Source of the DNA: a virus
Lineage: Duplodnaviria > Heunggongvirae > Uroviricota > Caudoviricetes
Virus record (IMG/VR): IMGVR_UViG_2529292981_000044
DNA length: 2,817 nucleotides
Direction: 5' to 3' (one strand)
Made by a program: the position numbers and the translations under genes
The notes under the pieces: model-generated
Seen by the model: only the letters and a program-made list of their open reading frames with translations
Told to the model about the DNA's origin: nothing
Databases searched by the model: none
Shown here: positions 589 to 1,669 of the stretch, piece after piece
Layout: every line of letters starts with the position of its first letter
How positions within the stretch are numbered: the stretch's first letter is position 1

Positions 589-1001
589 GTGAATTAGCTA
601 TCAGGCTTCAATTGTCGCTGGCATTCACATCAAAGGAGAAGAGCATGGAAATAAAACCAGAAGATGAGTTAAGCAATATCGTTTTATTTCCGGTAAAAGA
701 GGATGACCCACGTAATCAGGTTAATTTTCTTTATGAGCCATCGGAAAGAGCATATTGTCATCACGCCTCTGTTCGGGTTGACGAAAAAGAGCGTCAGGTC
801 CGCTGTAAAATCTGCGGTGCAGTTGTGGAGCCATTTGACTGGATGCTCTCTGTGGCGAAAAGAGAAACCAGACTGGCAGATGATGTAAGGATCTTGCGCC
901 AGGAGGAACGGGAAAGGCGGAGAAATATAGAAAAGCTAATTCAGATTGAGCGTAACGTGAAAGCGCGGATACGCAGGGTGACAAAATCCAGAACTGAATA
1001 A
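585..1001 (+). CDS. Hypothetical protein, 138 aa from GTG 585 (or 118 aa from ATG 645); Cys/His cluster (C-H-H ... C-x2-C) followed by a basic, Arg/Glu-rich predicted coiled-coil tail
   Basis: Long ORF in the frame of the track. Two candidate starts: GTG 585 with AGGAGG (572-577) 7 nt upstream and a 4-nt overlap with the upstream stop, or ATG 645 with AAGGAG (633-638) 6 nt upstream. The motif YCHHASVRV...RCKICG suggests a zinc-ribbon-like element; the C-terminus RILRQEERERRRNIEKLIQIERNVKARIRR is heptad-like and basic. Stop TAA 999-1001. Confidence 0.65.
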   Translation: MSELAIRLQLSLAFTSKEKSMEIKPEDELSNIVLFPVKEDDPRNQVNFLYEPSERAYCHHASVRVDEKERQVRCKICGAVVEPFDWMLSVAKRETRLADDVRILRQEERERRRNIEKLIQIERNVKARIRRVTKSRTE

Positions 1002-1049
1002 TTAAATTTAGCTCTGTTAAAAATTTAATCCTTAACCGGAGGTATATCA

Positions 1050-1262
1050 ATGTCAAACGCACAGAAAGTTATTAACGCTGAAAAATATAACGAGTGGGTG
1101 AAAAAGTTCTCAGAGCAGATTTTTAAAATTACTGGCGACGAGAATGCGGCAAAAAATGAATTAGAGCCGTGGACACCTGAAGGTGTCGACCCAAATTATT
1201 GCTGGTGGGATGTTGATCCAGTTGATGCTGCAAATGAAGCTATGAGTTATCACAACGATTAA
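1050..1262 (+). CDS. Hypothetical small acidic protein, 70 aa, with a Trp-rich acidic C-terminal half
   Basis: ATG 1050 with GGAGG (1038-1042) at 7-nt spacing; stop TAA 1260-1262. About 14 Asp/Glu versus 6 Lys/Arg, with the tail EPWTPEGVDPNYCWWDVDPVDAANEAMSYHND. Same strand as its neighbours. No family recognised. Confidence 0.6.
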   Translation: MSNAQKVINAEKYNEWVKKFSEQIFKITGDENAAKNELEPWTPEGVDPNYCWWDVDPVDAANEAMSYHND

Positions 1263-1272
1263 TGTCAGGAGG

Positions 1273-1288
1273 CCGCCCGAAAGGGCGG
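1273..1288 (+). other. Perfect 6-bp GC stem with GAAA (GNRA) tetraloop in the intergenic spacer; not a canonical terminator (no U-tract)
   Basis: CCGCCC (1273-1278) / GAAA / GGGCGG (1283-1288), exact reverse complements, optional G-U closing pair 1272/1289. AGGAGG (1267-1272) lies immediately 5' and ATG 1291 / GTG 1298 immediately 3'. Confidence 0.4.
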
Positions 1289-1297
1289 TAATGAAAA

Positions 1298-1669
1298 GTG
1301 ACTGAATTAACCAAAGAGAAATTAATCGAAGAAGCCAAATTAAAAATAGCGATTGCGAAATGCTACCCCAATTCAGGGATGGCACGGGTAGAGGGCGAGT
1401 TATTCAAAATTGCACTGGCATCGCTGGAAGCAGAACCGATAGCGTGGGAATGCGGTGAAAACATAATCCTGTTTAACCCTGACACAGTTGAAGCATACGC
1501 AAAACGTGCGGAAATATCACCTAAACCACTATTCTCCGCGCCGCCAGCGCTGGTAGTGCCTGATAAGTTGCCGCGTGAATACAGAAACGGTTGGCCTCTT
1601 GCGTATAGTGATTATGCTGAAGGCTGGAACGACTGCCGCGAAGCCATGCTTCAGGGAGATAAATCATGA
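1298..1669 (+). CDS. Hypothetical prophage protein, 123 aa; resembles (from memory) the N-terminal portion of Ea22-like / DUF551-associated lambdoid accessory proteins
   Basis: The frame opens after TGA 1292-1294; the first start is GTG 1298, with the next in-frame ATG at 1379 (Met28). Stop TGA 1667-1669 overlaps the next ATG (ATGA). The motifs PIAWECGENIIL, PLFSAPPALVVPD and AEGWNDCREAMLQG resemble the conserved 'VAW ... APPAPVVPD ... GYNxCRxAML' stretch I associate with Ea22-like phage proteins; unverified. Confidence 0.6.
   Translation: MTELTKEKLIEEAKLKIAIAKCYPNSGMARVEGELFKIALASLEAEPIAWECGENIILFNPDTVEAYAKRAEISPKPLFSAPPALVVPDKLPREYRNGWPLAYSDYAEGWNDCREAMLQGDKS

Follow-up and report, generated by a model that had tools for sequence, protein, structure and literature searches.

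A conserved Shine-Dalgarno–hairpin element ahead of unrelated accessory genes in Escherichia and Shigella lambdoid prophages: a candidate portable, hairpin-bridged ribosome binding site

How does a ribosome reach a start codon when a G/C-rich hairpin lies between that codon and the Shine-Dalgarno (SD) sequence ahead of it? The question is raised by a stretch of 2,817 nucleotides (nt) of viral DNA (Caudoviricetes; IMG/VR record IMGVR_UViG_2529292981_000044), analysed at its full length and here called the window, in which the sequence AGGAGG runs directly into a hairpin closed by a GAAA tetraloop, and the gene for a protein of 123 amino acids (aa) opens with GTG at position 1298, beyond the hairpin. 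On balance, and with restrained confidence, comparison with related prophages leads us to read positions 1265-1290 as a portable initiation module in which the hairpin would bridge the SD to the start codon, and which would also serve as a linker at mosaic joints.

Read along the plus strand, the junction runs GAT TAA TG TC AGGAGG CCGCCC GAAA GGGCGG TA ATG AAA AGT GAC TGA, with the positions of its parts collected in Table 1. AGGAGG lies 25 nt from GTG 1298 on the linear sequence and about 7-9 nt from it with the hairpin skipped, the larger value applying to a hairpin of 16 nt. A preliminary description of the window, which had proposed that closure of the hairpin brings the SD within about 9 nt of GTG 1298, was correct in this arithmetic (25 nt minus the 16-nt hairpin) and exact in its coordinates for the SD, the stem arms, the loop, ATG 1291, TGA 1303-1305 and GTG 1298. 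It had also taken GTG 1298 as the start of the 123-aa gene, and this choice is upheld: the Prokaryotic Genome Annotation Pipeline (PGAP) places the start at the same position in Escherichia coli O157:H7 E32511, that position is ATG in most relatives, and the 552 homologues of the protein mostly begin MTELTKE or MAELTKE, a common N-terminus (M-T/A-E-L-T-K-E) which, together with the other two agreements, identifies GTG 1298 as the real start.

Ribosome binding sites with a split SD are recognised by a linear distance from SD to start codon of more than about 13 nt, a stem-loop that cuts the effective spacing to about 5-11 nt, and the lack of any other accessible SD. Across the relatives of the window the linear distance is 22-25 nt, a stem-loop of 16-18 nt leaves 6-9 nt, and no alternative SD is accessible. 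AGGAGG forms a duplex of -10.3 kcal/mol with the 3' end of 16S ribosomal RNA, the spacer between hairpin and start codon reaches -0.8 kcal/mol with the anti-SD, and the 3' arm of the stem, GGGCGG, which gives -6.7 kcal/mol with the anti-SD, is sequestered within a stem worth -12.4 to -14.4 kcal/mol. The element is thus probably a new case in the split, hairpin-bridged SD class, distinguished within it by its portability.

When the fetched loci were scanned with the upstream anchor AATCCTTAACCGGAGGGATT alone (the anchor-only sample), the start codons of five unrelated gene families were found 6, 7, 8 or 9 nt past the last G of the stem, in 16, 54, 5 and 10 loci, respectively, so that skipping the hairpin gives all five families an effective SD-start distance of 6-9 nt, which is the canonical range. 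Their spacers (tagttaa, taagaa, aacagata, taacaaata and taatgaaaa) are AU-rich and hold no SD, and the sole family that starts 11 nt past the stem (MGITKERL) carries a separate GGAG within its spacer. In all 186 anchor-only occurrences examined GGAG directly abuts the hairpin, and it is invariant in a second set, the 36 distinct 26-nt variants drawn from 297 loci. Homologues of the 123-aa gene that have other DNA upstream carry ordinary SDs 5-8 nt before ATG (for example aaggagtaacacATG and gaggactaacacATG), and three loci with the MTELTKE N-terminus have ataaggaaaactgaaATG and no hairpin; since homologues elsewhere carry ordinary SDs, these genes appear normally to depend on one. The structure-bridged SD suggested in the preliminary description fits these comparative data: an invariant GGAG, starts at 6-9 nt, no other SD, and a layout almost identical to that of gene 38 of phage T4.

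RNAfold assigns the hairpin a free energy of -12.4 kcal/mol with six base pairs (bp), of -14.4 kcal/mol with the seventh pair, G1272.U1289, that the program adds, and of -15.5 kcal/mol in the context 1267-1300. Within 160 nt of context its pair probabilities are 0.96-1.00, while the SD and both start codons stay largely unpaired (unpaired probabilities across the SD, 0.45-0.97), and the z-scores of the fold are -3.2 to -3.9. The window contains two perfect G/C-rich stems of 6 bp or more, where approximate dinucleotide-preserving shuffles lead one to expect about 0.33. A lone hairpin of this type is only mildly unusual in 2.8 kb, and, a single G/C hairpin being not very improbable, the case rests on the comparative data. 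No U-run follows the hairpin on either strand (plus-strand tail UAAUGAAAAG, minus-strand tail CCUCCUGAC) and a terminator scan of the window did not include it among the 6 terminator-like sites listed, which sustains the earlier judgement that it is not a terminator. A comparison with Rfam gave no match overlapping 1263-1305, even at E-values up to 10.

Conservation argues that the hairpin is more than a chance palindrome: a 35-mer containing it is present in 707 of 5426 complete E. coli genomes, in up to 5 copies per genome, and the 27-mer AGGAGG...TAATG occurs exactly in 104 IMG/VR contigs. Among species-representative genomes the module is restricted to Escherichia and Shigella, plus a contaminant-like 3-kb contig in a Collinsella metagenome-assembled genome (MAG). 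A degenerate 23-mer, GGAGRCCGYCYGAAAGGGYGGTA, was also seen in a Bipolaricaulota MAG (locus L363) and a Clostridiaceae MAG (locus L365) with unrelated flanks, and these matches are apparently due to chance or to a convergent combination of an SD-like sequence and a hairpin.

The surroundings of the module, which measures 26-32 nt, change on both sides. BLAST matches of the upstream part end at 1296 or 1310, and conservation of 90-100% through GGGCGGTA (ending GGTA) drops to 50-70% directly after it. Upstream stands either the gene for a 70-aa protein or an intergenic block, conserved and about 100 nt long, with AATCCTTAACCGGAGGGATTTCTGCACCCTCAGAACA at its end. In loci without the 70-aa gene, 21 nt (GATTTCTGCACCCTCAGAACA) join CCGGAGG to TCAGGAGG, and in the window the 70-aa gene replaces those 21 nt. 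At least five different upstream contexts were found, and six upstream classes are each combined with 3-6 downstream families. The downstream genes belong to at least five unrelated families: M[TA]ELTKE (phrog_5117), MRKFKIII (60 aa, phrog_1997), MxTLFRK (72 aa, phrog_1832), MLTLKHFI (43 aa) and MQxIKENI (158-196 aa). Phage ArgO145 (NC_049918, locus L369) holds two copies on its minus strand, at 2626-2601 and 1553-1528, 1.07 kb apart in one operon and in the same orientation. When about 3 Mb of fetched prophage DNA was searched for further arrangements of SD, hairpin and start codon, essentially none turned up besides the module, which marks it as a specific module and not a general style of these phages. 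The result is a short conserved intergenic sequence with exchangeable, non-homologous modules on either side, and, its flanks being non-homologous, the module would double as a short linker of conserved sequence where mosaic segments meet in the accessory regions of Escherichia and Shigella lambdoid prophages.

The two copies in ArgO145 precede the 60-aa gene (phrog_1997) and the 72-aa gene (phrog_1832, annotated 'released from the phage upon host infection'), and, as direct repeats, they could delete or swap the intervening genes.

Variation within the module is unevenly spread. The GAAA loop is nearly invariant. Stem substitutions are for the most part C to U in the 5' arm, with fewer G to A in the 3' arm. 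Those C to U changes that preserve a G.U pair affect 5 of the 6 sites open to them and are seen in many loci, G to A affects 3 of 6 sites and few loci, and G1272 to A yields an A-U pair with U1289. This spectrum, made up of events that are not independent, leans toward a stem acting as plus-strand RNA. The stem is paired in 92.5% of cells among the 36 variants, far above the slid controls (32-60%) and level with the shuffle control.

These features suggest how the element might work. On the mRNA the hairpin of 16-18 nt would be folded essentially always, bringing the exposed AGGAGG to about 7-9 nt from GTG 1298; a 30S subunit bound at AGGAGG could then set GTG 1298 in the P site, in the fashion of T4 genes 38 and 25, and the same module would serve whatever gene recombination places behind it. 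The short open reading frame (ORF) that begins at ATG 1291 would have no role in such a scheme. We infer that the ribosome uses the bridged SD, and the stable stem may also insulate the initiation region from changing neighbour sequence, while the identity of the module across phages may supply homology for cassette exchange.

The closest precedents come from phage T4. Bridging from 22 to 5 nt in gene 38 and from 27 to 11 nt in gene 25 was demonstrated by mutation and probing, according to the sections of PMC3014915 that deal with these genes, which also summarise the work on the split translation initiation region of gene 25 at the gene 26-25 junction (Nivinskas 1999; Malys and Nivinskas 2009). 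As described in those sections, gene 25 shows that bridged spacings of up to 11 nt work; it differs from the present element in a longer and less tight stem, in a larger bridged spacing, and in being conserved with a single orthologous gene rather than shuffled between genes. The junction of T4 genes 37 and 38 is made up of TAAGGAG, a stem of 6-8 bp with a UUCG loop, 4-6 nt and ATG. The two elements share an SD abutting a G/C-rich stem of 6-8 bp with an extra-stable tetraloop, a short AU-rich spacer before the start codon, and a preceding gene whose stop codon falls shortly before the SD. Their linear distances (22 nt in T4, 22-25 nt here), bridged distances (about 5 nt and 6-9 nt) and folding energies (-16.7 kcal/mol and -15.5 to -17.4 kcal/mol) are similar. 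They differ in the loop, UUCG in T4 and GAAA here, and are not homologous in sequence. The T4 element is tied to a single gene; the present one is repeated, portable and found before unrelated genes in temperate lambdoid prophages; bridging in gene 38 is proven by mutation, whereas our element is known from its sequence and predicted fold. A literature search for reports of split SDs in lambdoid phages returned nothing relevant.

A functional parallel is offered by integrons, in which ORF-11 and ORF-17 of attI provide a shared initiation region for cassettes that lack a ribosome binding site (RBS) of their own. There, too, one upstream initiation signal serves interchangeable genes without an SD. 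The integron signal works through a short translated ORF and coupling, whereas the prophage module lacks a conserved short ORF and its likely mechanism is a hairpin bridge.

Several observations weigh against a hairpin-bridged SD. The spacing of 6-9 nt fits equally well a use of the 3' arm GGGCGG as the SD when the stem is open, and E. coli is also able to initiate on A-rich leaders that lack an SD. The 92.5% pairing of the stem compares with 92.0% in column shuffles, 158 of 500 of which scored as high, and changes on both sides of a pair occur in only two cells (pair 3, from G-C to A-U, and the loop-closing pair, from C-G to A-U). Some lineages carry mismatches: CGGCCC in 16 loci, CCGCCA/GAGCGG in 4 and CCACCC/GGGCAG in 2. 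About 40 nt upstream of the module are conserved to the same degree as the hairpin, the whole block of about 65 nt being alike, so that conservation alone cannot single out the hairpin and could result from a single block of DNA having spread recently instead of from selection for the stem. A full-text literature search for the stem sequence found no paper. The preliminary description had named conservation and covariation of the stem in relatives as checks on its proposal; the module is conserved, as the genome counts given above show, and covariation in the stem is not significant, so that we claim no support from it.

A possible, if unlikely, alternative is that the hairpin is a stem for mRNA stability, processing or insulation, that the genes initiate on their A-rich leaders, and that the SD is at most a standby site. 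A very stable hairpin with a GNRA loop does lie between cistrons, the spacers and first codons are A-rich and unpaired, and relatives of the 123-aa gene function behind upstream regions of quite another kind. Such a stem leaves unexplained why GGAG is invariant and always abuts it, and why starts are limited to 6-9 nt with an SD of its own in the family that begins at 11 nt; homologues elsewhere, moreover, always have a canonical SD.

It is improbable that the module has no function in RNA and is a recombination linker or a recently spread block, its palindrome and SD being relics of former gene junctions. The equal conservation of the whole 65-nt block, the free reassortment of the flanks on both sides, the breakpoints of BLAST matches at 1296 and 1310 and the lack of significant covariation all suit this explanation, as does the model of boundary sequences. 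In the passages of PMC3233612 that treat them, which cite Susskind and Botstein 1978 and Clark et al. 2001, such boundary sequences are conserved at the mosaic joints of lambdoid phages. The module resembles them as a short conserved intergenic sequence between interchangeable, non-homologous modules, and differs in having a recognisable function, the linker being a predicted complete RBS. A pure linker does not account for downstream genes that have no other SD, for the persistence of the module as a separate unit where the 70-aa gene splits the block, or for a substitution asymmetry in the direction expected of a plus-strand RNA stem.

The hairpin might instead be an operator for an RNA-binding protein, be it a translational repressor of the phage or an N-like protein, rich in arginine, whose target is a GNRA hairpin of the boxB type, and so co-regulate the genes that bear the module; we regard this as very improbable. 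A repressor would be ideally placed between SD and start codon, the loop hardly varies, some phages carry two copies, and GCCC-GAAA-GGGC has what we take to be a resemblance to the stem and GNRA-like loop of lambda boxB. Against these points stand the absence of a plus-strand boxA near the hairpin, the distance of several kb from the early promoters, the lack of an Rfam match, the existence of loop variants (GGCA, UAAA and AAAA), and the fact that no candidate binding protein was identified. A search of the window for boxA (CGCTCTTTA-like) gave only two matches, each with one mismatch, on the minus strand at 744-793, which is no more than chance. A lambdoid nut site (boxA plus boxB) was considered and demoted, as there is no boxA near the hairpin and the locus follows the replication genes. 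If the operator explanation were true, the module would be a movable regulon tag placing the accessory genes behind it under one shared post-transcriptional control.

The ORF at ATG 1291 also had to be accounted for. The five bases past the stem in the anchor-only sample are TAGTG in 30 loci, TAGTT in 27, TAAGA in 14, TAATA in 9, TAATG in 9, TGGAG in 6 and AACAG in 5; this sample is depleted of TAATG copies, which earlier scans had already fetched, and the corrected share of copies with the ATG is about one fifth. Most independently sampled copies lack ATG 1291 and have GTG, ATA, GTT, AGA or other triplets in its place. Where the spacer has one A fewer (8 nt), ATG 1291 is in frame with the gene and gives MKMTELT, and the length of the mini-ORF (4, 6, 7 or 14 codons) and its sequence vary with the downstream gene. 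With the hairpin melted, ATG 1291 lies 18 nt from the SD and 2 nt from GGGCGG, and consequently has no usable SD in either state. A functional leader or regulatory upstream ORF was rejected on its lack of conservation, its frame in some copies and its range of 4-14 codons; the mini-ORF appears to be an accident of the TAATG spacer variant. The switch proposed in the preliminary description, in which the closed hairpin directs the SD to GTG 1298 and the open one favours ATG 1291, with the gene then translated by coupling or re-initiation from the mini-ORF, is permitted by the window, where the ATG 1291 ORF and its stop overlap GTG 1298, and we give it hardly any credence, given an ATG that is absent from most copies and in frame in others, a stem too stable to open spontaneously, and no SD at a usable distance in either state.

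Length variation was also noted past the hairpin in about 22 loci with TAATGAATGGTCACATTATTTAGAAAAAAT, which belong to the 72-aa family and have an A-run of 6 or 7 bases. With 6 A, no long ORF opens at the expected start, and such a copy could be a frameshifted pseudogene, a sequencing error or a case of slippage.

Table 1. Positions of the element and its neighbours in the window
Feature	Position	Strand	Remarks
Conserved portable module, TCAGGAGG-CCGCCC-GAAA-GGGCGG-TA	1265..1290	+	TA at 1289-1290; many copies identical on to 1296
Shine-Dalgarno sequence AGGAGG	1267..1272	+	Single-stranded; 25 nt 5' of GTG 1298
RNA hairpin	1272..1289	+	Six G/C pairs (CCGCCC 1273-1278 with GGGCGG 1283-1288, as read from the sequence) plus G1272.U1289; GAAA tetraloop 1279-1282
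AU-rich spacer UAAUGAAAA, hairpin to start codon	1289..1297	+	No SD inside
Four-codon mini-ORF MKSD*	1291..1305	+	ATG 1291-1293, AAA AGT GAC, TGA 1303-1305; incidental, not conserved
123-aa gene (Eaa/Ea22-like family, phrog_5117)	1298..1669	+	GTG 1298-1300 start, annotated by PGAP
70-aa gene (phrog_4659)	1050..1262	+	Stop TAA 1260-1262; flanked by the left part of the intergenic block and by the SD-hairpin module
Left part of conserved intergenic block	996..1041	+	Stop-codon hairpin (CTGAAT..ATTTAG) plus AATTTAATCCTTAACCGGAGG; kept behind several different upstream genes

The wider setting of the element is itself mosaic. Positions 1-1845 of the window are 99.8% identical to prophage DNA in E. 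coli O157:H7 E32511, downstream of the replication genes, where the small genes follow one another in the order DUF1627, DUF977, hypothetical, 70-aa gene, 123-aa gene, DUF551, then hokD and RusA; positions 1407-2817 match the integrase-proximal region of the Stx2 phages 1717 and 2851. The left and right parts thus match different prophage regions, which makes the window a mosaic or recombinant. The two matches overlap inside the 123-aa and DUF551 genes, which themselves overlap by ATGA (1666-1669) and are fused in many relatives into single proteins of 200-215 aa (P0003, P0004 and P0013-P0020). The 'Ea22-like' label given to the 123-aa gene in the preliminary description is only loosely justified: one source names the product 'Eaa protein', the protein has no Pfam or NCBIfam match, and phrog_5117 is a family whose function is not known. 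Pfam and NCBIfam gave no functional clue for the flanking small proteins either.

A small hairpin enclosing the stop codon of the upstream gene (CTGAAT-AATTA-AATTCAG or ATTTAG, with CTGA..TCAG variants) opens the intergenic block of about 100 nt and is followed by AATTTAATCCTTAACCGGAGG, as seen at 996-1041 of the window, 2436-2500 of locus L002 and 1620-1560 on the minus strand of L369. In the window AATTTAATCCTTAACCGGAGG is the SD of the 70-aa gene. In loci without that gene, the first SD-like sequence, GGAGGG, can pair with CCCTC 9 nt downstream and would be sequestered. One lineage (L003 2476-2500, L130 and L163) has a variable G-run in the loop of this first hairpin, GGAGGGGGGG followed by one to three G and CTGCACCCTC, which is either homopolymer sequencing noise or real length variation. 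In PP818812.1 (L002, 'Actinobacillus phage vB_Apl-pPE4') a block of 96 nt at 2436-2531 matches E. coli prophage DNA with 100% identity, and Ea22-like and hok genes lie nearby; the record has the look of an E. coli lambdoid phage, which casts doubt on Actinobacillus as the host.

A nine-codon ORF, MSGGRPKGR*, spans 1262-1291 on the plus strand of the window, from TAATG to TAATG across the SD and the hairpin. It was considered as a functional ORF and rejected, other upstream contexts lacking its ATG, and its confinement to the lineage with the 70-aa gene makes it probably fortuitous. Terminator-like hairpins with T-runs lie farther downstream on the plus strand, two of them in tandem between a 29-aa ORF and a 114-aa gene (2133-2154 and 2165-2184) and one directly before an AlpA/Xis-like gene at 2626 (2585-2604).

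To our knowledge, natural RBSs whose start codon is linked to a distant SD by a hairpin are few, with T4 genes 38 and 25 as the textbook examples. If the bridged reading of the module is true, it would add a widespread example from temperate phages, one that about 13% of complete E. coli genomes carry and that extends to Shiga-toxin phages, and would show that a hairpin-bridged site can be a self-contained, transferable unit. Incoming genes without an SD would owe their translation to such a unit, which would at the same time provide short homology for the reshuffling of lambdoid genomes. The module may also aid annotation, since the real starts lie 6-9 nt past the stem and not at the first ATG, and it may offer a compact, context-insulated design for an RBS. 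It would then be a neat and widespread natural case of a rare initiation mechanism, one that poses no challenge to current understanding.

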